A stretch of 34,963 bases of DNA, from positions 1 to 34,963 of the forward strand of contig JAUYHE010000053.1 of the NCBI GenBank assembly GCA_030690175.1. The letters are read 5' to 3'. Position 1 is the first letter of the stretch; each line of letters starts with the position of its first letter. The notes under the pieces are model-generated. The model ran no database searches, was not told the origin of the DNA, and worked only from the letters and a program-made list of their open reading frames with translations. Below are positions 13,145 to 27,713 of this stretch, one piece after another. Source of the stretch: a bacterium (GTDB lineage: Bacteria > Patescibacteriota > Microgenomatia > Woykebacterales > RBG-16-39-9b). The position numbers were made by a program, and so were the translations under genes.

Positions 13145-14410
13145 ATGAAAAAAATTAAGAAGCTTCTTTCTTATCTGGGTCCCGGATTTATAACTGGTGC
13201 CAGTGATGATGATCCTTCTGGTATAGCAACCTATTCTCAGACCGGGGCGGTGTTTGGTTATTCCCAGGCCTGGACTTCTCTTTTCTCCTACCCTTTTATG
13301 AGTGCTGTGCAGGAAATGTGTGGCCGGATTGGGATGGTTACCGGTAAGGGTTTATCTGGAGTTATCAGACATCATTACTCTGCGTCCGTACTTTACTTCG
13401 CTGTTTTACTCTTGGTAATTGCTAATACGGTAAACATCGGTACCGATCTTGGGGCGATGGCTGCCTCTGGTCAACTGTTGTTTAGTATACCATTTATAGT
13501 GTGGTTACTGGGAGTTACGGCGATAACACTGCTGTTGGAGGTCTTTGTCTCTTATAAGGTCTACTCCAAGTATCTTAAATTCTTGACGTTCTCCCTTTTT
13601 GCTTATGTGATTACAGTGTTTGTAGTTCAGCAAGATTGGGGTAAAATTTTAGTGTCGACTATTTTCCCGAGTTTTTCTTTAAGTAAAGACTACTTGATGA
13701 ATGTTGTCGCTATTTTAGGCACCACAATATCTCCCTATCTTTTTTTCTGGCAAGCTGGTGAAGAAGTGGAGGAAGAAGTGGCTCAGTCCAAGTTGCGAGT
13801 TATGGGTCGGGGAGTACCAAAAATTACGAACAGAGACATCAGAGGAATGAGAGTAGATACTTTGGTGGGAATGTTTTTTTCGAATCTGGTAATGTTTTTT
13901 ATAATCGTCACAACAGCCTCAACACTGCACACCTACGGTATTCAAAATATTGAGACGGCGCCCCAAGCCGCCGAAGCCTTGCGTCCCCTGGCAGGTAACC
14001 TGGCTTATCTTTTGTTTGCGGCTGGAATTATTGGGACTGGTCTGCTGGCGGTTCCAGTTCTTGCTGGTTCAGCCTCTTACGCCTTATCGGAGGCGTTTGG
14101 TTGGAGAGAGGGTTTGTACCGACGGTTTACCCAAGCTCATGGTTTCTACGGTATAATCGCCATCGCTACTTTGTTTGGTCTAATGATCAATTTTACCCCA
14201 ATTCCGCCTTTCAAAATGCTCTACTACACCGCCATACTAAACGGGATTTGTGCGCCACCATTAATGATTTTAATAATGCGTATCTCTAACAATCAGAAAA
14301 TAATGGGTAATAATGTTAACACTCGTCTTTCAAATGTTTTGGGATGGACAATAACAGCTGTTATGGGTATTTCGGCGGTGGCGTTGCTGGTGAGTCTAGT
14401 AACCGGTTAG
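13145..14410 (+). CDS. NRAMP-family divalent metal transporter
   Basis: N-terminal GPGFITGASDDDPSGIATYSQTG and an 11-TM-like profile. Confidence 0.8.
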   Translation: MKKIKKLLSYLGPGFITGASDDDPSGIATYSQTGAVFGYSQAWTSLFSYPFMSAVQEMCGRIGMVTGKGLSGVIRHHYSASVLYFAVLLLVIANTVNIGTDLGAMAASGQLLFSIPFIVWLLGVTAITLLLEVFVSYKVYSKYLKFLTFSLFAYVITVFVVQQDWGKILVSTIFPSFSLSKDYLMNVVAILGTTISPYLFFWQAGEEVEEEVAQSKLRVMGRGVPKITNRDIRGMRVDTLVGMFFSNLVMFFIIVTTASTLHTYGIQNIETAPQAAEALRPLAGNLAYLLFAAGIIGTGLLAVPVLAGSASYALSEAFGWREGLYRRFTQAHGFYGIIAIATLFGLMINFTPIPPFKMLYYTAILNGICAPPLMILIMRISNNQKIMGNNVNTRLSNVLGWTITAVMGISAVALLVSLVTG

Positions 14411-15024
14411 TGGTATCTTCTGATTACGCCCACAACCCGACCCTGAATCGTCGCGTTTTTTGTAATAATCGGATTCATTGAGGAATTGGCGGGCTCAAGT
14501 CGAATGTGGTCGATTTCTTTATAAAACCGCTTGAGAGTGGCAAAATTTTCGTTTATAAGGGCAACCACAATCTCGCCATTATTAGCCTGATTTGTTTCCT
14601 CACAGATTACGTAGTCGCCATCTAAAATTGAGGCCTCGATCATACTGTTTCCGCGCACTTGCAGAGCAAAACACCTTTTTTTACCTACGAGATCTGGAGG
14701 TACATTGACCGCAGCCGTGTGATCATTTATTGCTTCAATCGGCTCACCGGCGGCGATTAGACCCACTAAAGGAATTTCAACCACGCTTTGTACCCAACCC
14801 ATCACTTTTTGATCGACGATTTCTAAGCCGCGACGGACACCCTCGCTTTTTTTCAATACCCCTTTATCGATGAGATTTTGGATGTGCTCGTGGACAGTGG
14901 CTGGAGATCGCAAACCAAGGCCATCGCAGATTTCCGCTAAAGTAGGAGCAAAGCCTTTTTTTTGCATAAATTGGGAAACAAATTCCAGAAGATCGCGTTC
15001 TCGTTTGTAGATTACTGCTGGCAT
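14407..15024 (-). CDS. lexA: LexA repressor
   Basis: wHTH N-domain (PTLAEICDGLGLRSPATVHEHI), cleavage region, S24 peptidase GNSM Ser and a downstream Lys (TLKRF). Confidence 0.9.
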   Translation of the reverse strand: MPAVIYKRERDLLEFVSQFMQKKGFAPTLAEICDGLGLRSPATVHEHIQNLIDKGVLKKSEGVRRGLEIVDQKVMGWVQSVVEIPLVGLIAAGEPIEAINDHTAAVNVPPDLVGKKRCFALQVRGNSMIEASILDGDYVICEETNQANNGEIVVALINENFATLKRFYKEIDHIRLEPANSSMNPIITKNATIQGRVVGVIRRYH

Positions 15025-15142
15025 AAAACCTCGCTTCGCTTGGAATTAAGAGTTAAGAATTCAAAATTAATAATTAAAACTCTTTCTGAACTCTGCCTTC
15101 TGAATTATGAACTCATTAAACCTTCGTGTTTTTTCTGGTTAA

Positions 15143-15172
15143 ATTATCGTACAATTTTCGGCCGTTTGTCAA
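15143..15172 (-). promoter_or_regulatory. candidate lexA promoter TTGACA-18-GATAAT
   Basis: The minus strand reads TTGACA (15172-15167) and GATAAT (15148-15143). This implies a leader of about 110 nt ending in a GAGG SD. Confidence 0.45.
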
Positions 15173-15182
15173 CTGGATAAAA

Positions 15183-15353
15183 GTGTATCAATTCTTTTCG
15201 GACCCCGAGGCTATTCGAATAGCACCAGGTGCCGAACTCACCGTTCGTAACCAGGACACAGGAGACTTCATAGTGGTGCACGGAAGTCCGACGGGAAGAG
15301 TGGAGGTTGTAGACTCTAGCTTTTCGGACCCGGATTACGGCGACAAGCGTTGA
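15183..15353 (+). CDS. possible 56-aa small protein (GTG start) inside GC-rich island 1; alternatively non-coding
   Basis: It is the only ORF in the island (track ORF 15126-15353). Hydrophilic, with no clear SD and no recognised family. Its two FSDP motifs coincide with the 12-nt direct repeat. Confidence 0.25.
   Translation: MYQFFSDPEAIRIAPGAELTVRNQDTGDFIVVHGSPTGRVEVVDSSFSDPDYGDKR
15194..15331 (+). repeat. two perfect copies of CTTTTCGGACCC (15194-15205 and 15320-15331)
   Basis: Direct repeat read from the sequence. Both copies are complementary to GTCCGA at 15286-15291. Confidence 0.8.
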
Positions 15354-15386
15354 GGTTCACACACTCCTGGTAAGACTGACGCATTG

Positions 15387-15450
15387 ACCGCAGCAAGAAA
15401 AGTGTGACTGCAAGTTACACGGTCCTGGCTGCGGTTTTCATTTTCAGTTT
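15387..15450 (+). terminator. intrinsic-terminator-like long hairpin plus U-tract upstream of uvrB
   Basis: ACCGCAGC (15387-94) pairs with GCTGCGGT (15428-35). The inner stem is GTGTGAC/GTTACAC (15402-08/15414-20, with one G-U that works only on the plus strand). It is followed by TTTTCATTTTCAGTTTT. Confidence 0.6.
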
Positions 15451-15485
15451 TAAATCCTACCTTCTTGAGTTAAAATATAAAACCT

Positions 15486-17513
15486 ATGGACAAATTTGAC
15501 TTAAAAGCACCATGGCCGCCGACCGGTGACCAACCACAGGCTATTTCTAGCCTTTCAGAAGGTCTGAAAAAGGGCTTTCGGTACCAAACCCTGCTTGGTG
15601 CTACTGGAAGTGGTAAGACTTTCACTATGGCTAGTATAGTGGCGGATTTAAATCGTCCTACTCTGGTTATCGCCCACAACAAGACCCTCGCAGCTCAACT
15701 GGCAGCCGAGTTTCGCGAGTTTTTTCCAAACAACGCGGTGGAGTACTTCGTCTCTTACTATGATTATTATCAACCCGAGGCTTACGTACCTCAGATAGAT
15801 CTTTATATCGAAAAAGATGCTGCCATCAATGAAGAAATAGACCGACTTCGTTTAGCGGCGACTAAAGCTCTTCTTACTCGTAAGGATGTTTTGATTGTAG
15901 CCAGCGTTTCTTGTATCTACAACATTGGTTCGCCCGATGCCTATAAGCAAAGTACTTTGACATTATTCAAAGGTCAAAACTTACCTCTAGCAAAGGTCAA
16001 GGAGTCTCTTGTGCATTTGCAGTATGAGCGGAGCGATATAGATCTAAGGAGATCGACGTTTCGGGTGAAAGGAGACGCTCTAGAACTTTATCCAGCTTAC
16101 GAAGAATTCGCCGTTAGAGTTTCTTATTTTGGAGATAAAATTGAAAAAATTACTAAAGTGAACTCAACAAGTTTTGAAGAAATTGAAGAATTGAATGAAC
16201 TGATGGTTTTTCCAGCCAGGCATTACAACGTTCCTATAGACCTTTCTTACGACCCGCTTGAGCAAATCAAAGATGAATTTGCGGACTGGAGTAAAAAACT
16301 TAAGAAACAAAAAAAGATAATTGAGTTGCAGCGCCTTACCAATCGGGTCAAGTATGATCTGGAGATGCTACGCGAAATCGGCTTTGTGAAAGGAATTGAA
16401 AATTACTCGCGCTTTTTTGACGGCAGAAAGCCTGGGGAACCACCGTTCACGTTGTTGGATTACTTTCCTAAAGATTTCATTACTTTTATCGACGAATCTC
16501 ATATGAGCCTTCCCCAAATTCGCGGAATGTGGCACGGTGAGAAAAAGCGCAAAGAGTTACTTATTGAGAATGGTTTTCGCCTGCCAAGTGCTATGGACAA
16601 CAGACCGCTTACCTACGAAGAATTTATGAGGACAGTGGGTCAAATGGTGTTTGTTTCGGCCACACCCAATGACTATGAGTTGTCCCTGTCAAACCAAGTT
16701 GCCGAGCAAATAATCCGACCGACCGGTATTGTTGATCCGCAGGTTGAAATACGAAAAACAGCCAGCCAAATCCCAGATCTGATAAACGAGATTCAAAAAC
16801 GTGTCGAAAAAAGACAGAGAGTCTTGGTTACGACTCTTACGAAGCGGATGGCCGAAGACCTGACCGATTATCTTCTTGAAAAAGAAATTAAAGTCATGTA
16901 TATACACCACGAAGTCGATACCTTGGAAAGGGTAGATATTTTACGAGATCTAAGGTTGGGAAAATACGATTGCTTAGTTGGTATCAACTTGCTCCGCGAG
17001 GGCCTTGATCTGCCGGAAGTTTCTCTAGTTGCTATTCTCGATGCCGATAAAGAAGGCTTTTTGCGTAGTAAGACAGCTCTTATTCAGACTATCGGTCGAG
17101 CGGCCCGCCATATCGACGGGAAAGTAATAATGTACGCCGATGAGGTTACCGGCTCTATGAAAATAGCGCTTGATGAGACCAATCGGCGGCGGGAAATTCA
17201 AATAGAATACAACAAAAAACACAACATTACTCCGGAAACAGTCCAAAAAACCATCCGTGACATCGGGGAAAGGTTAAAGCAACTTCAACCAGAGGCAGAA
17301 GTGGCCCAAGAGCTTGATTTATCAAAAGTTCCGAAAGATGAATTGAAAGGTTTGATTCGTGATTTGACCAGCGAGATGACGGACGCCGCCAAAAACCTGG
17401 ATTTTGAACGGGCCGCAATTTTGCGGGATCAATTATTGGTAATTAAGAAGCAACAACTGGAAGTCCCGAAAACAATTACCCCACAAGAAGCCAAAAAGAC
17501 GAAATTTCCCTAG
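15486..17513 (+). CDS. uvrB: excinuclease ABC subunit B
   Basis: GATGSGKT Walker A, DESH box, helicase motifs and a C-terminal UVR domain (LDFERAAILRDQL). Confidence 0.97.
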   Translation: MDKFDLKAPWPPTGDQPQAISSLSEGLKKGFRYQTLLGATGSGKTFTMASIVADLNRPTLVIAHNKTLAAQLAAEFREFFPNNAVEYFVSYYDYYQPEAYVPQIDLYIEKDAAINEEIDRLRLAATKALLTRKDVLIVASVSCIYNIGSPDAYKQSTLTLFKGQNLPLAKVKESLVHLQYERSDIDLRRSTFRVKGDALELYPAYEEFAVRVSYFGDKIEKITKVNSTSFEEIEELNELMVFPARHYNVPIDLSYDPLEQIKDEFADWSKKLKKQKKIIELQRLTNRVKYDLEMLREIGFVKGIENYSRFFDGRKPGEPPFTLLDYFPKDFITFIDESHMSLPQIRGMWHGEKKRKELLIENGFRLPSAMDNRPLTYEEFMRTVGQMVFVSATPNDYELSLSNQVAEQIIRPTGIVDPQVEIRKTASQIPDLINEIQKRVEKRQRVLVTTLTKRMAEDLTDYLLEKEIKVMYIHHEVDTLERVDILRDLRLGKYDCLVGINLLREGLDLPEVSLVAILDADKEGFLRSKTALIQTIGRAARHIDGKVIMYADEVTGSMKIALDETNRRREIQIEYNKKHNITPETVQKTIRDIGERLKQLQPEAEVAQELDLSKVPKDELKGLIRDLTSEMTDAAKNLDFERAAILRDQLLVIKKQQLEVPKTITPQEAKKTKFP

Positions 17514-17552
17514 AGAAAAGATGAAGCTCTCATGCGGGTACGACATGAGAGC
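17511..17552 (-). terminator. minus-strand intrinsic terminator of the large ncRNA
   Basis: Perfect 9-bp stem GCTCTCATG/CATGAGAGC (17526-34/17544-52). On the minus strand it is followed by TTCATCTTTTCTCT. There is no T-tract on the plus strand. Confidence 0.6.
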
Positions 17553-18089
17553 CCAAGGAACGGAATGGTACGGAACGGAACCAGAACGGCAAGGCACTGG
17601 AACGTAGCCGGACCTTATACTTCACCCTCACCCGCTTCCGCTATGGTACCCAAAAGCGGTGGGATTGAAGCCGATTTGAGGCGGAGAGAAGTAGCTCGGT
17701 GATCTCTGGCAAAGGCCGACCCAGCAACTCCCCGCCGATGGTGTCACGCTGGGGTTCAGCAATTCAGCGTGTTCGCACCCAAAGTCAGTGAGGGGTAGCC
17801 CGAGAACGGTAGGCAAATGCAGTGCATCTGTGGACCTCCTTTCGGAAGTTACCACTACCCTCAGTTGTTTATCCGGTCCCAAGACTCAGGCTTCGCCGGA
17901 AGTATGAGCAGGTAGCCATCGTGCATCTCTCTCTATGGCTCCGGCGCTCTTTGGGCCCTGGGACCGCGAAAAGGTTCCGCCCGAACGGCAGGGGCCGAAG
18001 CAATGGGTTACGTAGCCCAGGGAGGGGGTAACGTCACCCGTGCAGACGGCTTCATGCCTTGGGGCGGATCTGTAATAGACACAAAGTGC
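17515..18089 (-). ncRNA. unclassified large (about 575 nt) GC-rich structured RNA candidate
   Basis: Bounded by the TTGACA-17-TATAAA promoter and the terminator above. Contains only short overlapping low-complexity ORFs. Has multiple helices with GNRA/UUCG-type loops and G-U pairs that work only on the minus strand. Confidence 0.5.
17557..17603 (-). repeat. cluster of GGAAC-type pentamers (GUUCC on the minus-strand RNA)
   Basis: On the plus strand: GGAAC at 17557, 17572, 17577 and 17599, plus GGAAT at 17562 and AGAAC at 17583. All lie within 47 nt. Confidence 0.7.
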
Positions 18090-18095
18090 AGGCTA

Positions 18096-18124
18096 TTTAT
18101 AACTCAAAATTTCCGGAATGTCAA
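18096..18124 (-). promoter_or_regulatory. near-consensus sigma70-type promoter TTGACA-17-TATAAA
   Basis: Minus strand -35 at 18124-18119 and -10 at 18101-18096, with an exact 17-nt spacer. It sits in a short AT-rich patch inside the GC-rich island. Confidence 0.5.
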
Positions 18125-18306
18125 CTTAAACGAATTGGAAACAATGAAAGGAGCCGACCCCAGGAGTCCATCAGCCGCTGTAGTAGCGCTGATCATCCAG
18201 GACTTCTGGAGCCGGTAGTGATAGTTTGGAGAGTCAGGCCCAGACACCCTTTTCGGGGGTCCTTTTGAAGGTACCGCCTAGCCTGGACCTGACTCACGCG
18301 ATTGGG
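18125..18306 (-). other. GC-rich structured spacer / 3' UTR downstream of the wHTH gene
   Basis: A roughly 14-bp interrupted hairpin spans 18165-18204. An 8+4-bp stem (18231-43/18283-95) encloses a hairpin at 18244-18260. Confidence 0.3.
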
Positions 18307-18621
18307 TTAGGCGAAATCAGTCTTTGTTGAGGGTGAATATTCCCGCGTGAGTTTACCGATAACGTCCTTCATAGGAAACTCCATGATTGGGTGCGTGAAC
18401 GTAGCGTCCAGATTGACAGTGTAGTGATGACGCCGTCCGTCTTTCCGGACCTTAATCATGTCCTTGCGGCGCAGGTCACCGATGATACCCCAAACAGTAC
18501 GCCTGGTAAGGGACATCTCCTCCGCGATCTGTTTAATGGTGCAGCCTGGGTGCACGGCAATGTAAAAAAGGATAGCGCCGTGGCTAGAGACGAGCCACCA
18601 CTGAGGCTCTTGTTTTCCCAT
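18307..18621 (-). CDS. small winged-helix (MarR/ArsR-like) DNA-binding protein
   Basis: CTIKQIAEEMSLTRRTVWGIIGDLRRKDMIKVRKDGRRHHY forms an HTH plus wing. I prefer Met6, because GGAGG lies 8 nt upstream of it. The ORF extends to 18636. GC content is higher than in flanking genes. Confidence 0.7.
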   Translation of the reverse strand: MGKQEPQWWLVSSHGAILFYIAVHPGCTIKQIAEEMSLTRRTVWGIIGDLRRKDMIKVRKDGRRHHYTVNLDATFTHPIMEFPMKDVIGKLTREYSPSTKTDFA

Positions 18622-18642
18622 GGGATCTGCCTCCATTTCTCA

Positions 18643-18659
18643 AGAATAGATTGTATTCT
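18643..18659. promoter_or_regulatory. inverted repeat AGAATA-N5-TATTCT (candidate operator)
   Basis: 6-bp perfect arms in the 71-bp divergent wHTH/uvrA intergenic region. It overlaps the putative wHTH -10. Confidence 0.35.
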
Positions 18660-18682
18660 ACTACTCTTGTCAAAATTTGCAA
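18655..18682 (-). promoter_or_regulatory. candidate wHTH promoter TTGCAA-16-TAGAAT
   Basis: Minus-strand hexamers at 18682-18677 and 18660-18655. Confidence 0.35.
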
Positions 18683-18695
18683 AAAGGTGTAAACT
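18667..18695 (+). promoter_or_regulatory. candidate uvrA promoter TTGTCA-17-TAAACT, near-leaderless
   Basis: Hexamers at 18667-72 and 18690-95. The ATG at 18708 has no SD. Confidence 0.4.
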
Positions 18696-18707
18696 TTTTC
18701 TCTTCTT

Positions 18708-21572
18708 ATGACCGATAAAATAGTAATCCGCGGTGCCCGAGAGCACAATTTAAAAAATATAAGTTTGGAGATTCCAAAGAATAAACTGGTAGTTATCACT
18801 GGTATTTCCGGTTCGGGAAAAAGTTCGCTTGCTTTTGACACCCTTTACGCTGAAGGGCAGCGTCGCTACGTCGAATCTTTGTCCGCCTATGCCAGGCAAT
18901 TCCTCGGCCTTATGGAGAAACCAGATGTCGACCAAATAGACGGGCTTTCACCGGCGATTTCCATTGATCAAAAAAGCGCCCCAAAAAACCCAAGATCCAC
19001 AGTGGGCACAATCACCGAAATTTACGACTATATGCGTCTGTTTTGGGCAAGAATAGGTCGGCCGCATTGCTCGGTGGACGGTAAGGAAATCCGAACTCAA
19101 ACCCCTCAAGAGATCGTCGATCAAATCGTTCTTATGGGAGACAAAAACGAAAAAGGTGACAAAGGAAAGCAAATTTTAATATTAGCTCCAGTGGTGAAAG
19201 GTAGGAAGGGGATATACGAGGAAAACTTTGCAGATTTAAAGAAAAAAGGTTACGCCCGGGTGCGGGTGGACGGAAAAATTTACGAGCTAGACGAGGTACC
19301 AAGCCTGGGCCGTTACAAGATTCACGACATCGATTTAGTTGTAGATAGGGTTCAACTGCCGACTGATAAACAAAGGCTGGCCGAGTCCGTCGAAACGGCG
19401 TTGAGGATGGGGGATGGAGTTGTTTATGTTTACGACCAAGAGCTGCAAAAAGAAAAAATTTTTTCAGAAAAATATTCCTGCCCAGAGCATGACGTTTCCC
19501 TACCAGAGCTTGAACCAAGGACGTTTTCCTTCAATTCTCCTTCAGGTGCCTGTAGCGCTTGTCAGGGGATTGGTAGTAAGCTTACAATTGATGCTGAGCT
19601 GGTTATTACCAACCGAAATCTGTCAATTAGTGAGGGTGCGATACTACCGTGGCAAAGAATGCTTTCTCACGACACCTGGACGAGCCGACGGCTGGAGGCC
19701 TTGGCCCGACACCTTGGTTTTTCCCTTTCAGAGGCGGTGAGGGACTTGCCGCAAGAAATCTTCAAGACAGTTCTTTTCGGTTCTGAAGAAACAGTTTTTC
19801 CAGTTTCTGGCCGCAATCGGTTTGGTAAACAAATTACTTTTCACACAACCTTTGAAGGCGTAATACCCGAGCTTTTACGTCGCTACAGAGAAACCGAAAG
19901 TGATTGGACCCGCCGAGAAATAGAAAAATACATGCGGGAAGAAATTTGTGATGTTTGCCAAGGATCTAGATTAAAGAAAGAAACCGAATTTATTACCGTC
20001 TCCGGAAAATCAATTATCGAAATTAGCCAGATGTCCATTGCCGATGCCAAAAAATGGTTTGACCATATTTCTTTAACCGAAAAAGAACGCTTTATCGCCA
20101 AACAAGTTTTGAAGGAAATCCAAGCTAGAATCAAATTCTTATCGGATGTAGGTTTGGATTATCTAACGATTAATCGTACCAGTGTTACTTTAGCTGGCGG
20201 TGAGGCCCAACGGATTCGTCTGGCTAGTCAAATTGGATCAGGTCTTTCTGGCGTTCTCTACGTACTAGACGAACCCTCAATCGGTCTGCATCAAAAAGAT
20301 AATTTGAGACTAATTACGACCTTAAAAAACCTTAAACTCCTGGGTAATACTGTGATTGTAGTCGAACATGACATGGAGACAATTCTTAACGCCGATTGGG
20401 TAGTGGACGTTGGACCAGGAGCTGGAGAAGAAGGTGGGTATCTAGTTGCAGAAGGCACGCCAGAGAAAATAGCTAAGTCGCCAAAATCTATTACCGGAGT
20501 GTATTTGTCGGGTAAAAGACAGGTCAAGGGTAGAGTTAAGCCCAGAGAGGGGAATGGCCGAGTATTACGTGTAACTGGAGCAAGAGAGCATAATCTAAAA
20601 AACATTACCGTAGAAATACCTCTTAGTAAGTTTGTTTGCATTACTGGAGTATCAGGTAGCGGCAAATCTACTTTAGTTGAGGATATTTTACACAGAGCGC
20701 TAGCCGCATATTTCTATAGATCCAAAGAAAAGCCAGGTAAATTTGATAGAATTGAGGGTCTAGAGCACATCGATAAAATCGTCGATATTGATCAATCACC
20801 GATTGGGCGGACTCCTCGTTCCAATCCAGCTACCTATACCGGCGCTTTTTCTTACATTAGGGATCTTTTTGCCCAGGCAACAATCGCTAAAACCCGAGGT
20901 TATAAACCCGGACGGTTTTCCTTCAATGTAAAGGGGGGTAGGTGCGAGGCCTGTCAAGGTGACGGGTTGGTGAAAATAGAAATGCAGTTTTTGCCAGATG
21001 TTTACGTGACCTGTGAGGTATGCGCTGGTAAAAGGTATAATCGGGAGGCTCTAGAAATACTTTATAAAGGCAAAAATATTGCTGATGTTTTGGACATGAC
21101 TTGTTCAGAAGCCCTGAAATTTTTTGAAAATATACCAGCGATTAAAAGTAAATTATCAACCTTGGTTGATGTCGGTTTAGGTTACATCAGGCTTGGGCAA
21201 AGCGCGACCACTCTTTCTGGTGGGGAGGCTCAAAGAGTGAAACTCGCGACCGAGCTTTCAAAACGAGAAACGGGAAAAACATTTTACATACTCGACGAAC
21301 CAACAACTGGACTACATTTTGCGGATATCGAAAATCTTCTGAACATACTTCACCGTCTTGTAGACGCCGGTAATACCGTTGTGGTAATTGAACACAATTT
21401 GGAGGTTATCAAAACAGCTGATTGGATAATAGATCTTGGGCCGGAAGGTGGAGATAAGGGCGGGGAGGTTATCGCTGCAGGGGCTCCAAACCAAATTAGT
21501 AACAGCAAAAATTCTTATACTGGTCAGTTTTTAAAAACTATTATTCGATCCGCGAAGCAAATCTCCTCTTGA
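18708..21572 (+). CDS. uvrA: excinuclease ABC subunit A
   Basis: Two ABC modules (GISGSGKSS, GVSGSGKST), zinc-finger Cys clusters and LSGGEAQR signatures over 954 aa. Confidence 0.97.
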   Translation: MTDKIVIRGAREHNLKNISLEIPKNKLVVITGISGSGKSSLAFDTLYAEGQRRYVESLSAYARQFLGLMEKPDVDQIDGLSPAISIDQKSAPKNPRSTVGTITEIYDYMRLFWARIGRPHCSVDGKEIRTQTPQEIVDQIVLMGDKNEKGDKGKQILILAPVVKGRKGIYEENFADLKKKGYARVRVDGKIYELDEVPSLGRYKIHDIDLVVDRVQLPTDKQRLAESVETALRMGDGVVYVYDQELQKEKIFSEKYSCPEHDVSLPELEPRTFSFNSPSGACSACQGIGSKLTIDAELVITNRNLSISEGAILPWQRMLSHDTWTSRRLEALARHLGFSLSEAVRDLPQEIFKTVLFGSEETVFPVSGRNRFGKQITFHTTFEGVIPELLRRYRETESDWTRREIEKYMREEICDVCQGSRLKKETEFITVSGKSIIEISQMSIADAKKWFDHISLTEKERFIAKQVLKEIQARIKFLSDVGLDYLTINRTSVTLAGGEAQRIRLASQIGSGLSGVLYVLDEPSIGLHQKDNLRLITTLKNLKLLGNTVIVVEHDMETILNADWVVDVGPGAGEEGGYLVAEGTPEKIAKSPKSITGVYLSGKRQVKGRVKPREGNGRVLRVTGAREHNLKNITVEIPLSKFVCITGVSGSGKSTLVEDILHRALAAYFYRSKEKPGKFDRIEGLEHIDKIVDIDQSPIGRTPRSNPATYTGAFSYIRDLFAQATIAKTRGYKPGRFSFNVKGGRCEACQGDGLVKIEMQFLPDVYVTCEVCAGKRYNREALEILYKGKNIADVLDMTCSEALKFFENIPAIKSKLSTLVDVGLGYIRLGQSATTLSGGEAQRVKLATELSKRETGKTFYILDEPTTGLHFADIENLLNILHRLVDAGNTVVVIEHNLEVIKTADWIIDLGPEGGDKGGEVIAAGAPNQISNSKNSYTGQFLKTIIRSAKQISS

Positions 21573-21908
21573 TTTCCTCCCAGATCCACTTTATAGTATT
21601 GATGTAATAATTAATAAAACCCTCTATTGAGTTTAATCTATCCTTTACATTAGCAGTATTTTTTTATGAAAAATAAGGTTTTAGCGACAATTTGGGTTTG
21701 ATAGAGCAGATTTATCTAGGTAACCAGACCGGTGAAACCGTTACCCAGTTAGCTAATCAGACAAAGGAGATAATTGCATTTTTGCGGGCGAAGAAAAAAC
21801 CAATAATAATACTTGAGTATTTTATTATTGCCTCTTCTGACAATGGCGATAAGGTGAAGACGTTTGATACAAACCAAGCTGACCGATAGTTAGTTTGACA
21901 AATCCAAA

Positions 21909-24128
21909 ATGATAGGTTCCACCTTCGAAAAACAAAACTTAAAAAAATACAGAAAATCGGTAGAAAAAAAGATAAGTAAATTATTTCCCATTTTTTCAAA
22001 AGCTTCAGTGGGAGATTTCAGCAGACAAATTAGACTCCCTTCAGAAGAAGATGAATTTACCCCTCTGTACGTTGGCACCAACATGATAACCCAAGTAATT
22101 AGAGAGAAAATGGCCGAGTTGGAAAATTTAAATAAAAAGTTTGAAAAGAAAGTAGTGAAACGTACAGCCCAAATTGTTTTAGCCAATCAAGTCCTACGAA
22201 AGGAGCTATCGACACGTAAGGGAGCCGAAACAGCATTAAGTGAGTCAGAGGAAAGATACGCTACTTTAGTGGAGAAGGGAAACGATGGTATTGTAATCAT
22301 TCAAGATAGAGTTCTTAAATTTGTAAATGAGAAGATGGTAAAACTTACTGGCTTCAAGATAACAGATGCAATTGGAAGACCATTTACCGAATTTATCGCT
22401 CCCGAACATAGAGAGCTAGTATTAAGAAACCACAAACTGCGATTAATGGGTGAACCAGCCCCCAAGATCTACGAAGTTGAAATCTTAACGAAAAAGGGCG
22501 GAAAAGTTCCTGTAGAGATAAACGCTTCTCTGATTGAATATAGGGGGAGAAAAGCTAGTATGGCGATAATAAGAGATATTACCGATCGTAGAGAAGTAGA
22601 ACAAACGCTACAGGAGGAGAAAGGAAAACTCGACGCTATTTACAAAACTATAAAAGATGGTTTGGCTCTTTACGATAGAGACGGACGAGTTCTTTTCATG
22701 AACCCATCGCTTAAGAAATTATTCGGAGTAAAAACCAATTTGGTTGGTGTTGAAAGGGTAAAAATTGCTAAAAACAGAAGGAAATACTTTAAATATTACC
22801 TAGAAAGGTACGACGATTCCCTAGAAACACAAAGGCAAGTTTATTCAGGTAGACCAGTTTCAAACGTCCTGATGAAGGTTGATTCAAACCCACCCAAATA
22901 TTTGGAAGGAAACTATGTACCGATTAAAGATAATATGGGTAAGGTAATTGGGATGAGTGCAAGTTTCCGAGATGTTACGGTTTTAAAAAACCAATCCGAG
23001 AAAATCGCTAAACAACTTATCGAAGTGGAAAAACAAAAAGAGAGAATGCAAGCAATTTTCAATAATGTTGAAGAGGGTGTCTATATATTCGACAAGAGCG
23101 TAAAAATAATTCAGGCCAACAGCGCCTGCGAAATAATGGCCGGCTGCGAAGAGAAGGAAATGGTTGGAAAGACTTATTACGACATTTTTGGTTGTCATGA
23201 CAAGGTAGGGCATTTTTATCCAGAATTTGATCCGGTCTCAAAAGTTATTACCGCCAAGGAATCAATTCCTTACGATGAGCATTTACACACAAGTAAAAAC
23301 GGAAGGGAGCGTTGGGTTGGTGTCAGTTATACACCTATATTCAACGAAGCTGGAGATATCGAACAAATTGTCGGTGTGATACGGGATATTACTTCAATAA
23401 AAGAGCTAGAAAAAGCAAAAAGTGAGTTTGTTTCGGTAGCTAGTCACGAACTTCGAACTCCCCTCACGGTTATAAACGGCTACCTGTCGCTTCTTTTAAA
23501 TGGAGATTTAGGAAAGCTCGAAAGTGAAAAGTCGATACTAACGTTTTTCACAATTTTAAATAAAGTCAAATACGAAACAGAGAGATTGACAAAGTTAGTC
23601 GGTGAACTTCTAAATGTTTCCCGAATCGAAGAAGGAAGATTGAGACTGGTACTTAGAAAACTACCGATAATCGAGTTAGTCGATGAAATAACCAGTGACT
23701 TCAAAGCGATGGCCGCTATGAAGGGTGTCCGGCTTCAAGTAATCCACAAGGTGAGAGAAAACGGAAGAAATTACTACGTTATGGCGGACCCAGATAAATT
23801 TAAAGAAATATTGGTGAATTTACTTGACAATGCAATTAAATTTACTGAAAGCGGCGGAGAAATAATAATTAGCTGTGCCGAAAAAAAGGGCCGGATTTAC
23901 ATCGGAGTAAAAGATACTGGAATCGGGATTGAGCCAGGTATGTTATCACGAGTTTTCGATAAATTTCAACAAATTAGCGGTTCTTACTTAAAGGAAAATA
24001 AAGGCACAGGACTTGGTCTTTTTATCGTTAAATCTCTGGTAGAGATGCATAAAGGTAAAATTTGGGTAGAATCCGAAGTGGGCCAGGGAACCGAATTTAA
24101 TTTTTCCTTACCTCTTGTTGCTCCGTAG
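21909..24128 (+). CDS. cytoplasmic multi-PAS sensor histidine kinase
   Basis: No TM segments and about three PAS-like repeats. Has the HisKA H-box SHELRTPL and HATPase N/G boxes (LDNAIKFT, DTGIGI, GTGLGL). The start is uncertain because there is no SD. Confidence 0.88.
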   Translation: MIGSTFEKQNLKKYRKSVEKKISKLFPIFSKASVGDFSRQIRLPSEEDEFTPLYVGTNMITQVIREKMAELENLNKKFEKKVVKRTAQIVLANQVLRKELSTRKGAETALSESEERYATLVEKGNDGIVIIQDRVLKFVNEKMVKLTGFKITDAIGRPFTEFIAPEHRELVLRNHKLRLMGEPAPKIYEVEILTKKGGKVPVEINASLIEYRGRKASMAIIRDITDRREVEQTLQEEKGKLDAIYKTIKDGLALYDRDGRVLFMNPSLKKLFGVKTNLVGVERVKIAKNRRKYFKYYLERYDDSLETQRQVYSGRPVSNVLMKVDSNPPKYLEGNYVPIKDNMGKVIGMSASFRDVTVLKNQSEKIAKQLIEVEKQKERMQAIFNNVEEGVYIFDKSVKIIQANSACEIMAGCEEKEMVGKTYYDIFGCHDKVGHFYPEFDPVSKVITAKESIPYDEHLHTSKNGRERWVGVSYTPIFNEAGDIEQIVGVIRDITSIKELEKAKSEFVSVASHELRTPLTVINGYLSLLLNGDLGKLESEKSILTFFTILNKVKYETERLTKLVGELLNVSRIEEGRLRLVLRKLPIIELVDEITSDFKAMAAMKGVRLQVIHKVRENGRNYYVMADPDKFKEILVNLLDNAIKFTESGGEIIISCAEKKGRIYIGVKDTGIGIEPGMLSRVFDKFQQISGSYLKENKGTGLGLFIVKSLVEMHKGKIWVESEVGQGTEFNFSLPLVAP

Positions 24129-24153
24129 TTTTTTTGGTAGACTCTTTTAGCTT

Positions 24154-24546
24154 ATGAGTCAGATAAAAGAAGAAAAAATAAAAGTACTTTTAATCGAAGA
24201 TGAAAAAGAAGTGGCCGAGCTTTATAAATTAAAGCTTACCTTAGACGGATACGAAGTAGTTACCGCGGATAATGGTCAGGAAGGTTTAGAGAAAGCCTTT
24301 AAAGAAAATCCGGAACTTATTTTTCTTGATATAAAAATGCCCGGTATGGACGGATTTGAAGTTCTCAAGAAATTAAGAGAATCTCCAAAGACAAAGGAAT
24401 TACCTGTAGTGATTCTTTCCAACTTTGACGAACAAGACTTAATTGAAAAAGGGCTTACCCTAGGAGCTAATGAGTTTTTGATAAAATCGCAGTTCACTCC
24501 CGAAGATATTTCCAGAAAAGTAAAAAGCTGGGTAAACGAGGGATAA
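24154..24546 (+). CDS. single-domain response regulator (receiver only)
   Basis: LLIEDE, FLDIKMPGMDG and a conserved Lys. No output domain. Confidence 0.85.
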   Translation: MSQIKEEKIKVLLIEDEKEVAELYKLKLTLDGYEVVTADNGQEGLEKAFKENPELIFLDIKMPGMDGFEVLKKLRESPKTKELPVVILSNFDEQDLIEKGLTLGANEFLIKSQFTPEDISRKVKSWVNEG

Positions 24547-24559
24547 CTTGTTCTAAACA

Positions 24560-26446
24560 ATGAAGAGGGTAATACGCGTATTCTTAGTACTATTTTTTTT
24601 GATTCTCTCCACCGCACCACTCCATAAAACTGCCGGTGAGGATTGTAACGATACGGCCAAAATATTTTCAAGCACCTACGATATTAGCTACTCTTTTGAC
24701 CTAAACGGAAAAGCAAAAATAACCCAAAAAATTATTTTAAAAAACTTAGTTGGCGCTTGTTTTGCCTCAGAATACGCGTTAAAAATAAATTCGACAAATC
24801 TTCAAGATATCTCTGGTCAGGACTCTATTGGCAATCTTTACATTAAGGTAAATAAAGATAAAGAGTCGACGACACTAACCGCCAAGTTAAACGATGAAGT
24901 AATCGGAAAAAATAAAACTGTCGCCTTTCAACTTACGTATACTTTAGAGGGGTTGGCAAAAAAGCAAAGTCTTATTTGGGATATTACCATTCCAAGGGTT
25001 TTAACAAGCGAAAAAGTAACTAATTATAATCTGCAGCTTGTGACTCCAAGTAGCTTCGGTAAGGTTTTTTCTATCGCGGTCCAACCCGATCTAGTCAACT
25101 ACGGAAAAGACCAAACGGATATAAGGTTTAAGAGCAAGGAGATATTAGAGAGGGCGGTTTCAGTGAGTTTTGGTGATTTCCAAGAAATTTCCTTCAAAGT
25201 ACGAATACCACTAGAAAATCACAGCCTTTTTAAACGAAGCTTCGATTTTTATTTACCTCCAGATACCGAAAAGCAAAAAGTCCTTTTAAAAAAATTAGAG
25301 CCAATGCCGGGAATCTTAAAGATGGACCAAATGGGTAATTACGTTGTCCAATACAAAGTTTCTGGTAACTCGCTTGTGGAGATTTATATTGAAGGAACAA
25401 TAAAAATAATTGGTGCTGGTGGTCAGTTTGTCCCGCCAAAGCCAATTTCAAATCAGGAACTGACTAATTTGAAGGAGGCCGCTCCCTTCATCGAGGTTCA
25501 AGATAGTTTAGTGCAAGAAAAAGCTAAAGATCTAAAAGGAGTTAGGGAAATCTATAATTTTGTGGTCAGTTACTTAGACTACGACAAAAAGGGGGTCGAG
25601 ACCGGAAAGGCGGATAGAAAGGGCGCTGCTAGCCTACTACGGAAGAAGAAGTTGGCGACAAACCTAGACTTTGCCGATCTTTTTGTGGCTGTTGCCCGGG
25701 CCGCTGGTTTACCGACTCGTGAAGTAATTGGCTTTCCACTAAGTGAAACTAGTCAGTTAAAACCCGTTTTTGTTGGCTCTCATCTAAATAGTAACCGAGT
25801 GCATGTTTGGGTACAGGTATACGATACGAATAAAAGAAAATGGATTAATATCGATCCGACCTGGGGAAAAACTTCTGGGGTAGATTATATCCAAGAAGAT
25901 CTTTCAGATAGATTTATTTTGCTAATTACTAATTCGGGGGACCTAACTGGAGACATTGCTAATTTACAATCGCTGATAAAGAATTTTGAAATAACCACTG
26001 ACAACAAAAAAGAAAATTTTGTTGCGAATCCCCTGCTTGATATCCAAGTCGACCAAGTTTTTGCCGGGTTTCCTGCGGAGATTACGATCAAGGTGGTTAA
26101 TAATTCTGGCGTGAGTTTAACCGGCGGTAAGATTTCAATTGCTTCAGAAAACGCCAATATTATGGGTAAAAATGAGATAAATGTTCCCGTTATTTTTCCG
26201 TACGAGACCAAAGTTTTCAAAGCTAAACTGCGAGGTGGTAGTTTGTTTGGGACGATCTCGGGAAACCTAAACGTGAAACTGAAACTCCATAACGGCACGG
26301 ACACTATAAAAAAAGAAAAAACCGATAAGATCCTTGTTCGGTCATTTTTTTCATTGGGACAACAGCAGATCCTACTATTTCTTATTACCGTCCTTTTACT
26401 GGTGGGCGTCTTTTTCCCAAAAATAAATAAATATTTCGGCAAATAA
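24560..26446 (+). CDS. secreted, C-terminally anchored transglutaminase-like domain protein
   Basis: Signal peptide and C-terminal TM. Transglutaminase-core pattern DFADLFVAVARAAGLPTREVIGF...HVWVQVY...WINIDPTWG. Confidence 0.7.
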   Translation: MKRVIRVFLVLFFLILSTAPLHKTAGEDCNDTAKIFSSTYDISYSFDLNGKAKITQKIILKNLVGACFASEYALKINSTNLQDISGQDSIGNLYIKVNKDKESTTLTAKLNDEVIGKNKTVAFQLTYTLEGLAKKQSLIWDITIPRVLTSEKVTNYNLQLVTPSSFGKVFSIAVQPDLVNYGKDQTDIRFKSKEILERAVSVSFGDFQEISFKVRIPLENHSLFKRSFDFYLPPDTEKQKVLLKKLEPMPGILKMDQMGNYVVQYKVSGNSLVEIYIEGTIKIIGAGGQFVPPKPISNQELTNLKEAAPFIEVQDSLVQEKAKDLKGVREIYNFVVSYLDYDKKGVETGKADRKGAASLLRKKKLATNLDFADLFVAVARAAGLPTREVIGFPLSETSQLKPVFVGSHLNSNRVHVWVQVYDTNKRKWINIDPTWGKTSGVDYIQEDLSDRFILLITNSGDLTGDIANLQSLIKNFEITTDNKKENFVANPLLDIQVDQVFAGFPAEITIKVVNNSGVSLTGGKISIASENANIMGKNEINVPVIFPYETKVFKAKLRGGSLFGTISGNLNVKLKLHNGTDTIKKEKTDKILVRSFFSLGQQQILLFLITVLLLVGVFFPKINKYFGK

Positions 26447-26471
26447 ATTATCCTGGTGCTAAAATAAAAAC

Positions 26472-27713
26472 ATGAATTTAGATAATTTACCCCAAAATTC
26501 TGGTGTTTATATCTTCAAAGATTCGAAAAACAAGCCAATATATGTTGGTAAAGCGCTGAACATAAGAAAAAGAGTGAAGGGCCATTTTAGCCCGAAGACA
26601 GGTACTCCAAAAGGGAATTTGCTGCTCGAAAAAATAGACGCAGTGGAGTCAATTAGGATTGATTCCGAGATTGAGGCCCTTATTTTGGAAGCTAATTTGA
26701 TAAAAAAATACAAACCACACTTCAATTCGCAATTAAAGGATGACAAAGATTATCTCTATATAAAAATTACCAGGGATCCATACCCGAAGGTTTTAGTGTC
26801 AAGAAAAAAAGATCTTAAAAACGCTAAACTTTTTTTTGGCCCATTTCCATCGGCAACAAAGGTAAGAACTACTTTGAAGATACTTCGAAAAATATTCCAA
26901 TTCACCAGCTGCAACCCTAACCGCAAAAGAGCGTGTCTATACTATCATCTCGGCTTATGTCCTGGTGTGTGTATCGGACTCATTAGCCAGAAAGAGTACC
27001 GAAAAAATATAAGGGGTGTAATTTATATGCTTGGGGGTAAACAGGGTAAACTACTAGATGTTTTGGAAAAAGAAGTAAGGAGATTCGCCCGAAATTTAGA
27101 ATTTGAAAAAGCCCAGATGGGCCAGCAAAAAATTGAAGCTTTGCATTACGTTACCCAACCGATACGAATTTTGGAACATCCAGAAGTGGACCGCGAGGAA
27201 TTGAGGCAACGAGAAATTACCGAGCTAGCTAGGATCTTGGATCTTCCTCAAAGGCCGGCTAGAATCGAGTGTTACGATATTTCTAATTTTTCTGGCAAAC
27301 AGGCAACCGGTTCACTGGTCGTATTCACCAATGGGTTTGCGGATCGCAGTCAGTACAGACGGTTTAAAATTAAATTTGTAGAGGGCCCTAATGATACGGC
27401 GATGATTTCAGAGATACTTGAGAGAAGGTTTAAAAACGACTGGGGACATCCAGACCTTGTTTTAATTGACGGGGGTAAGGGACAACTAAACGCGGCTTTA
27501 AAAGTGGTCGCCAGCTTTAATTTGTCATTGCCCGTTATTTCCTTAGCAAAAAGGCTAGAGGAAATTTATTGGGCCGATAAAACAGAACCGCTACGTTTGC
27601 CAAGAGAAAGTAGTGCTTTGAAGCTATTGCAGCGGATCCGAGATGAGGCGCACCGTTTTGCCATAACTTATCACCGTAAATTAAGAAGCAAGCAGTTTTT
27701 GACCGGGGCGTAG
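26472..27713 (+). CDS. uvrC: excinuclease ABC subunit C, short form lacking the C-terminal (HhH)2 domain
   Basis: GIY-YIG (GVYIFKD...PIYVGKA), Cys-rich segment, UVR motif (LEFEKAQ) and endonuclease domain (IECYDISN...DEAHRFAI). Ends at 413 aa. Confidence 0.9.
   Translation: MNLDNLPQNSGVYIFKDSKNKPIYVGKALNIRKRVKGHFSPKTGTPKGNLLLEKIDAVESIRIDSEIEALILEANLIKKYKPHFNSQLKDDKDYLYIKITRDPYPKVLVSRKKDLKNAKLFFGPFPSATKVRTTLKILRKIFQFTSCNPNRKRACLYYHLGLCPGVCIGLISQKEYRKNIRGVIYMLGGKQGKLLDVLEKEVRRFARNLEFEKAQMGQQKIEALHYVTQPIRILEHPEVDREELRQREITELARILDLPQRPARIECYDISNFSGKQATGSLVVFTNGFADRSQYRRFKIKFVEGPNDTAMISEILERRFKNDWGHPDLVLIDGGKGQLNAALKVVASFNLSLPVISLAKRLEEIYWADKTEPLRLPRESSALKLLQRIRDEAHRFAITYHRKLRSKQFLTGA

Follow-up and report, generated by a model that had tools for sequence, protein, structure and literature searches.

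The locus between uvrB and uvrA

The stretch of DNA analyzed here, called the window throughout, is contig JAUYHE010000053.1 of assembly GCA_030690175.1 (34,963 nt), and this report concerns a 793-nt spacer between its uvrB and uvrA genes, the minus strand of which probably encodes a large, structured noncoding RNA (ncRNA). The gene order around the spacer is Nramp, lexA (minus strand), uvrB, the spacer, a winged-helix (wHTH) regulator gene (minus strand), uvrA, a PAS histidine kinase, a response regulator, a transglutaminase-like gene and uvrC. The nucleotide-excision-repair (NER) genes are thereby clustered at 14407-27713, and the UvrC protein is short (413 aa). The uvrB open reading frame (ORF) occupies 15486-17513, with its stop codon at 17511-17513, and uvrA starts at 18708; these coordinates agree with the gene boundaries in a first-pass annotation, made from the sequence alone, which had described the DNA between the two genes as a compositionally foreign island carrying a regulator and a large noncoding unit. 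Directly after the uvrB stop codon lies the ORF-poor spacer (17514-18306), followed by the wHTH gene at 18307-18636, which encodes a small, stand-alone protein of 109 aa (104 aa from the second methionine). The wHTH gene is divergent from uvrA, and uvrB is convergent with the minus-strand RNA.

The UvrB protein shares 84% identity with its counterpart in Candidatus Woykebacteria RBG_16_43_9, and its remaining named close matches belong to Woykebacteria or Patescibacteria. The window is therefore assigned to one of the ultra-small bacteria of the candidate phyla radiation (CPR), with a G+C content of about 41%.

Composition, folding and coding potential of the spacer

The G+C content of the spacer is 0.557, compared with 0.521 for the wHTH gene, whose raised G+C had been noted by eye, and 0.408 for the whole window. 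No other 793-nt stretch in the 35 kb is as GC-rich as the spacer (0.56; best elsewhere 0.48; mean 0.41, standard deviation 0.039), and a recount of 17581-17640 returned exactly the 36 G+C in 60 nucleotides that had been counted by hand. The wHTH gene is the only ORF between uvrB and uvrA with Pfam support, as expected from its earlier description as the sole credible one. The remaining ORFs of the spacer are at most 84 aa long and overlap one another on both strands, in line with the first reading of this sequence, and a tblastx comparison of the spacers of eight loci found no conserved peptide, the matches being at most 29 aa long and in inconsistent frames. A conserved protein translated from the same region in relatives, which had been named as a check on the RNA interpretation, is thus not seen among these spacers.

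The minus strand of the spacer has a predicted minimum free energy (MFE) of -318.4 kcal/mol, and z-scores of -7.5 against 20 and -5.1 against 30 dinucleotide-shuffled controls; the plus strand has a z of about -3. These values bear out the impression that the spacer is packed with helices. Across the loci described below, each spacer is GC-richer than its own locus and more stable than its dinucleotide shuffles (z from -3.1 to -6.9), and the strand in the sense of the wHTH gene is the more stable one in eight of eight. The high G+C content of the spacer can be explained by its structure, because a helix-rich RNA looks like this in a genome of 41% G+C. More generally, an “island” of high G+C within an AT-leaning genome need not be acquired DNA: it can also be a structured RNA. 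Public gene calls inside the RNA region of two relatives list hypothetical proteins of 107 aa (L101, 4195-4518) and 199 aa (L009, 489-1088) without Pfam domains; in all likelihood both are spurious calls made because the RNA gene is GC-rich.

Related loci carry a structured spacer at the same place

Relatives were recovered by following the wHTH protein and UvrB, with UvrB identities of 77-84%. Seven loci besides the window have uvrA beside the wHTH gene or beside a remnant of the wHTH promoter. The noncoding stretches are as follows.

Window: 793 nt after the wHTH gene, reaching uvrB
L019: 607 nt after the wHTH gene, reaching uvrB
L037: 304 nt after the wHTH gene, reaching uvrB
L101: 1286 nt after the wHTH gene, reaching uvrB
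L102: 656 nt between uvrA and uvrB, without a wHTH ORF
L103: 629 nt after the wHTH gene, reaching uvrB
L104 (the RBG_16_43_9 assembly): 994 nt after the wHTH gene, reaching uvrB and containing 35 N
L009: about 370 nt of structured sequence past the wHTH gene, followed by an inserted ORF of 137 aa; uvrB is not reached
L010: the contig stops just past the wHTH gene

All of the loci that span the region have a structured spacer, and uvrB directly adjoining uvrA was found in none of the related Woykebacteria loci recovered.

The RNA is built of modules whose helices covary

The spacers of different relatives barely align with one another. BLAST instead gives short islands of similarity that, by BLAST and by shared k-mers, are collinear and recurring, and these are referred to here as modules. 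Nearly all of the 793-nt spacer in the window is matched by a counterpart in some relative, and the set of modules varies by genome. The window carries the following features, given in the direction of the RNA.

18231-18296, minus strand: module A, in which a three-way junction is closed by a long stem, with CCC-GAAA-GGGUGUC as the conserved element (MFE fold)
18155-18215, minus strand: second long hairpin with a U-rich tract (CUCCUUUCAUUGUUU), from the MFE fold; probable terminator of the wHTH gene
18124-18119 and 18101-18096, minus strand: predicted sigma-70-type promoter TTGACA-17-TATAAA, read from the sequence, in the only AT-rich patch of the spacer
17976-18068, minus strand: module c, a CGCCCCAAGG...GUUCGGGCG domain common to the window and L101 (RNA positions 720-815)
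17875-17969, minus strand: module E, a GGUCCCAGGGC...CAAAGAGCGCCGGAG...CUUCCGGCGAAGCCUG...GGGACC domain common to the window and L104
17737-17871, minus strand: hairpins and block C, with the conserved block CACUGACUUUGGGUGC (alignment)
17616-17736, minus strand: module D, comprising stem Da (GGCGGGGAG/CUCUCCGCC), the junction CUCAAAUCGGCUUCA and a hairpin, Db, whose apical loop is UUGGGUACC
17646-17651, minus strand: Db loop GGGUAC, the 5' half of a loop-loop duplex
17541-17536, minus strand: terminator loop GUACCC, complementary to the Db loop
17514-17554, minus strand: intrinsic terminator (terminator scan), with its hairpin at 17554-17524 followed by CATCTTTTCT; it abuts the uvrB stop codon

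Module D provides the most extensive comparison. A covariance model of this module built from L101 only finds the window (E = 1e-5), L104 and L103, in each case at the expected place only, and a model built from four sequences finds the window at a single place with E = 1e-19, the untrained L102 with E = 0.002, and L019 weakly (E = 0.23). In the alignment of module D, which was fitted to the model so that its pairing figures lean towards structure, 97.6% of cells pair, compared with 45-61% when the partners are slid, and compensatory changes affect 10 of 24 pairs, compared with 2-3 after sliding. The junction of this module has the consensus CUCAAAUYGGCUUCA across relatives.

The other modules point in the same direction with fewer sequences. 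The element CCC-GAAR-GGGUGUC of module A is present in the window, L009 and L103, and in a simple three-sequence MAFFT alignment 11 of the 23 pairs of this module are compensatory, with one G.U pair invariant on the minus strand. The outer stem of module c reads UCCGCCC/GGGCGGA in the window and AUCGCCC/GGGCGAU in L101, a difference of two compensatory pairs. Module E, compared between two sequences, has a conserved core that is 87% identical to L104, 3 of 19 pairs being compensatory and the minus-strand G.U pairs being kept. Module C corresponds to ACUUUGGGUGC, and its 9-mer ACTTTGGGT is collinear in the window, L101 and L103. A further module, B (GGACGCGAG...GGCCCCCCUUGCGG...CUCGCGUCC), occurs in L101-L104 and, at its contig end (1967-2074), in L009, and is absent from the window. 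In L009, a 137-aa ORF and an AT-rich stretch with an apparent TTGACA-17-TAGAAT promoter (925-1800) lie between modules A and B, so the upstream part of the RNA locus and its core are separable.

In modules A, D and E, each G.U pair kept on the minus strand would correspond to a C.A mismatch on the opposite strand, which favors the minus strand as the RNA strand. Across species the stems vary while junctions and loops are conserved. As far as a comparison of sequences can, the compensatory changes in several helices, together with the loop-loop contact described next, show that the spacer encodes a conserved structured RNA.

A covarying contact joins the Db loop to the terminator loop

Wherever module D is present (five loci), the apical loop of hairpin Db is complementary to the loop of the terminator hairpin over 5-8 bp. 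The Db loop and the terminator loop read GGGUAC and GUACCC in the window, GGGAGUGU and AUACUCCC in L101, GGGAGUGU and ACACUCCC in L104, GGGAGUAC and GUGCUCCC in L102, and GGGAG and CUCCC in L103, so that the GGGUAC:GUACCC of the window has GGGAGU:ACUCCC as its counterpart elsewhere. When pairing is counted over fixed segments of 12 nt, with the invariant GGG and CCC as anchors, 90% of cells in this duplex pair, compared with 40-67% after sliding, and 5 of 8 pairs are compensatory; these values were reached by only 2-5 of 500 column shuffles. Fixed segments were used because a combined model of module D and the terminator (R3) mis-aligned the terminator of the window, which has an extra hairpin of about 70 nt, and that model was set aside.

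Judged on these five loci, the covariation between the two loops is the strongest single sign of a defined three-dimensional fold, of which the terminator hairpin appears to be a part. The Db loop of the window also holds the palindrome GGUACC (17645-17650), and besides its pairing with the terminator, two copies of the RNA could conceivably dimerize through this loop.

Transcription signals and independence from the wHTH gene

The first-pass annotation had given the noncoding unit a promoter and a terminator of its own, and both can be placed on the minus strand as predictions, namely TTGACA-17-TATAAA at 18124-18096 and the hairpin at 17554-17524. The promoter is omitted by the promoter scanner because the scanner demands a T at position 6 of the -10 hexamer. 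In L101 and L104 an intrinsic terminator lies past the wHTH gene and is followed by promoters on the RNA strand that match the consensus at 11 of 12 positions (TTGACA-17/18-TAAAAT). The clear terminators at the equivalent position in these two loci suggest that the hairpin at 18155-18215 in the window is probably the terminator of the wHTH gene. Five other relatives (L103, L102, L019, L037 and L009) have a TATAAT box right after the wHTH stop, in the first four as an extended TGnTATAAT.

The RNA and the wHTH gene can also be found apart. In L102 (5029-5684; UvrB 81% identical) the whole wHTH frame has been lost, with no tblastn match, and the wHTH promoter, the TGGTATAAT box and the RNA (module D, E = 0.002) have been kept. 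In 91 loci of the wHTH family outside Woykebacteria, of which those carrying organism names are Chloroflexota, the RNA model has no match. The regulator-plus-RNA cassette that had been proposed is therefore not upheld as an obligate unit, given the RNA without the gene in L102, the terminator and promoter that separate the two in L101 and L104, and the 91 wHTH loci without the RNA; the two are neighbors that are separable.

The RNA belongs to no family in Rfam 15

A search of the whole window against Rfam 15 gave no match at the gathering threshold. With the threshold relaxed to E <= 10 for 17400-18750, the one match was noise (a eukaryotic long noncoding RNA model, 11.9 bits against a cutoff of 40), and six related loci searched at E <= 1 likewise gave one noise match only. 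The families covered include RNase P, transfer-messenger RNA (tmRNA), signal recognition particle (SRP) RNA, 6S RNA, group I and II introns, OLE, GOLLD, ROOL, raiA and HEARO. The absence of RNase P, tmRNA, SRP and group II features, judged by eye at first, thus also holds in the Rfam scan that had been proposed as its check. ARAGORN found no tmRNA or tRNA in the window. Two segments, GAGAGAAAUCA and AAAUCGGCUUCA, resemble CR-I and CR-V of RNase P by eye; this likeness was rejected because the strands cannot form P4, the window lacks the 5' element and no model matches.

The spacer had no blastn match in phage and plasmid collections, and a scan of viral contigs for two conserved motifs by exact pattern gave chance matches only (model E >= 0.07). 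Literature searches for RNAs of CPR bacteria, of Woykebacteria or of the uvrB-uvrA region returned nothing relevant, and no large structured CPR RNA was described in what they returned. The spacer RNA is a family absent from Rfam 15, a new one among the large ornate bacterial ncRNAs, and it has so far been seen in Woykebacteria only.

Interpretation of the spacer and rival explanations

We consider it probable, at roughly 0.72 and as a statement of what the element is and not of what it does, that 17514-18306 is not foreign DNA but a structured RNA gene that is conserved and transcribed independently. Of the first-pass annotation, the reading as a structured RNA gene is thereby retained, now with compensatory changes and without an Rfam family, and its foreign-island and cassette readings are given up. 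On this interpretation the minus strand would encode a large, modular ncRNA that is ancestral to, and vertically inherited at, the uvrB-uvrA locus of Woykebacteria. The core RNA, of about 570 nt, would run from TTGACA-17-TATAAA (18124-18096) to the terminator at 17554-17524, where it abuts the convergent uvrB, and the 150 nt upstream of the core promoter, comprising module A and the terminator-like hairpin, would follow the wHTH gene and form part of the same RNA locus in relatives. The RNA is predicted to fold into serial long helical domains, and the pairing of the Db loop with the terminator loop would either tie the 3' end into the fold, if it forms within one molecule, or join two copies, if it forms between molecules.

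Several observations weigh against this interpretation. The promoter, the terminator and the ends of the RNA are predictions, and the window reads CCCAAT where five relatives have TATAAT after the wHTH stop. The core modules are present in only four to five sequences, with two to five per module, and the covariation counts are small. Domain content varies widely, module B being absent from the window; L037 has about 300 nt without any core module, and module D is weak in L019. Turnover on this scale shows either that large parts of the RNA can be dispensed with or that several units are combined in it. In addition, its position is the only tie between the RNA and DNA repair.

The spacer might instead be a long 3' untranslated region, or a processing or stability element, of the wHTH mRNA that acts in cis. 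In the window and in six of seven other loci it immediately follows the wHTH gene on the same strand, and the degenerate TATAAT box after the wHTH stop of the window means that module A may be co-transcribed with the gene. This we think unlikely, as L102 keeps the RNA without the wHTH ORF, a terminator and then an 11/12 promoter follow the wHTH gene in L101 and L104, the window has its TTGACA-17-TATAAA inside the spacer, five loci have the TATAAT box just past the wHTH stop (four of them extended), and none of the 91 other wHTH-family loci carries a match to the RNA. Still less probable is a cis device for uvrB, in which convergent transcription, driven by a strong promoter and ending at a shared hairpin beside the uvrB stop, would tune expression or termination by interference or as a 3'-end antisense. 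For interference there would be no need of covarying helices over 570-1000 nt or of a conserved contact between loops, and the overlap of the RNA with uvrB is nil or a few nucleotides, even though the RNA terminator abuts the uvrB stop in the window and overlaps the 3' end of uvrB in L037, and the plus-strand hairpin lacks a U tract, which leaves uvrB without a canonical terminator of its own.

That a horizontally acquired, compositionally foreign cassette of regulator and RNA was inserted between uvrB and uvrA is, in our estimate, very unlikely. Its G+C content (0.54, compared with 0.41 for the window), a wHTH family otherwise typical of Chloroflexota, and Woykebacteria wHTH copies that form no clade in a crude neighbor-joining tree would all suit such an origin. 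The same arrangement, however, is found in all of the Woykebacteria-type loci recovered, with no empty site, and the island-less uvrB-uvrA pair that had been suggested as a point of comparison does not occur among them. Hallmarks of mobility were not found either: ARAGORN reported no tRNA, no repeats bracket the island, the 12-13-nt repeats present are at chance level, and the neighbors are lexA, uvrB and uvrA. The RNA itself was not found in Chloroflexota-type loci or in phage and plasmid records, nor in viral contigs beyond chance. The G+C content at third codon positions (GC3) of the wHTH gene is elevated in all orthologues, and this speaks against a recent transfer still unadjusted to the composition of the host; the raised GC3 thus appears to be maintained and not recent. 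Recent acquisition is not supported, and an ancient transfer of the wHTH regulator between phyla is possible.

We regard as the least probable explanation a decayed protein gene or a stack of DNA palindromic repeats, of the repetitive extragenic palindromic (REP) or miniature inverted-repeat transposable element (MITE) type, without a function as RNA. The many long, near-perfect hairpins and the varying length and domain content among relatives would fit it, yet tblastx found no conserved reading frame, no repeat family was found in the region, the 35-kb window has no second copy, the G.U pairs and the MFE favor one strand, and distant loops covary. Conserved loops and junctions with varying stems are the reverse of what the decay of repeats would leave.

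Comparison with known large RNAs and a possible role

Large structured bacterial RNAs such as OLE, GOLLD, ROOL and raiA are few, most are without a known function, and several build unusual RNA architectures. OLE (ornate, large, extremophilic) RNA is an Rfam family of about 600 nt from Bacillota. Its biochemical function is unknown, it has a stress-related role, and it is described as part of a ribonucleoprotein complex (PMC9723947, PMC12054373). The spacer RNA resembles OLE in its size, its many helical domains with conserved junctions and loops, its restriction to one lineage and its own transcription signals. It differs in that neither the window nor six relatives match the OLE covariance model in Rfam, in its phylum (CPR), and in its neighbors, which are lexA, uvrB, wHTH and uvrA, with no genes of the oapA, oapB or oapC type nearby. 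Domain content also varies far less between relatives in OLE than it does in the spacer RNA.

GOLLD and ROOL are large ornate RNAs that form RNA-only homo-oligomers (PMC12286853). The spacer RNA shares with them its large, ornate character, and its conserved loop-loop (kissing) contact could be intermolecular, the loop of the window containing the palindrome GGUACC. Unlike GOLLD and ROOL, it matches neither of their Rfam models and was not found in phage records or viral contigs; what is seen in the spacer RNA is a covarying complementarity of loops, and the sequence does not tell whether this forms within one molecule or between two. The covarying kissing loop would also be compatible with assembly between RNA molecules of the kind known from ROOL and GOLLD (PMC12286853).

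Conserved structure together with a promoter and a terminator is a likeness to the raiA motif RNA. At about 200 nt, the raiA RNA is much smaller than the spacer RNA. It is an abundant structured ncRNA of unknown function (PMC12968392). The spacer RNA does not match the raiA model, and the phyla differ. With housekeeping RNAs (RNase P, tmRNA, SRP, 6S) the spacer RNA has in common that it is structured and GC-rich in an AT-leaning genome, but no covariance model of these matched at E <= 10 and ARAGORN found no tmRNA. The spacer lengths of 304-1286 nt, and the core modules missing in some relatives, also fit poorly with an essential, universal RNA.

Genomes of CPR bacteria are roughly 1 Mb in size and have very little noncoding DNA. 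A noncoding unit of 0.6-1.3 kb that is kept in the core NER cluster of so small a genome is costly, and is therefore probably useful to the cell. With low confidence, we suggest that the RNA may act in trans as a stable fold, most likely as a protein-binding scaffold like OLE RNA; a trans-acting, stable RNA is favored because of the strong predicted promoter and terminator, the conserved junctions and loops, the tertiary contact and the retention in a reduced genome. The fixed place inside the lexA-uvrB-uvrA-uvrC cluster suggests, with similarly low confidence, a role in the DNA-damage response. The fullest version of this idea is an undescribed class of large (0.6-1 kb), ornate RNA, specific to one CPR lineage and fixed between uvrB and uvrA in a reduced genome, that is a working part of the DNA-damage response, either as a scaffold or decoy binding NER, SOS or wHTH proteins or by self-assembly through the loop-loop contact, and this we regard as doubtful. 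To the small set of large bacterial RNAs, the spacer RNA adds a candidate with a clear tertiary contact, between the Db loop and the terminator loop, and a defined genomic context.

The wHTH regulator, its family and the neighboring intergenic regions

The wHTH protein matches the Pfam families MarR_2 (31.4 bits, cutoff 27) and HTH_24 (29.7 bits, cutoff 21.9), and NCBIfam gave weak ArsR/CopY-type matches only, none of which reached its cutoff. Profile matches in the PDB are to the DNA-binding domains of NtcA and MarR. There are 509 homologues at 57-72% identity; the genome matches that carry organism names are Chloroflexota, and most of the homologues lie in lgt-glutaredoxin-wHTH loci. In a crude neighbor-joining tree of about 95 aligned residues, the Woykebacteria copies are not monophyletic and are not separated from those of Chloroflexota. 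Four loci outside Woykebacteria (L002, L005, L006 and L012, the last from a named Chloroflexi genome) share a conserved ResB-Lgt-glutaredoxin-wHTH context, and the operon downstream in these four is of the PALP/NIL/ThiS/CMD type, associated with sulfur metabolism. Four of the five non-Woykebacteria wHTH loci scanned against Rfam carry a downstream S-adenosylmethionine (SAM) riboswitch with a PALP (cysteine-synthase-like) operon. This riboswitch is unrelated to the spacer RNA.

The interval between the wHTH gene and uvrA contains the following promoters.

18637-18707, both strands: divergent, overlapping promoters of wHTH (minus strand, TTTGCA-17-TAGAAT) and uvrA (plus strand, TTGTCA-17-TAAACT), from the promoter scan

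Within this interval a block of about 45 nt at 18650-18695 (AGTTTACAC..TTTTGCAAnTTTTGACAAGnGTAGTAGAATAC, on the wHTH strand) is near-invariant in nine loci and is kept in L102. The block probably serves the two promoters as a shared operator, bound by the wHTH protein or by LexA. A search for the Gram-positive-type LexA box (GAAC-N4-GTTC) gave matches at chance level, none of them in promoters.

The intergenic region between lexA and uvrB (15025-15485) is also long, at 461 nt, and its uvrB-proximal part, especially 15190-15444, is GC-richer. A hairpin resembling a terminator, CCGCAGC...GCUGCGG with UUUUCAUUUU after it, lies at about 15388-15444 and closes this part some 40 nt ahead of the uvrB start. 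The final 89 nt of the gap are 91% identical in L104, and the gap measures merely 157-207 nt in L102 and L103. The intergenic region may be a leader or attenuator for uvrB.

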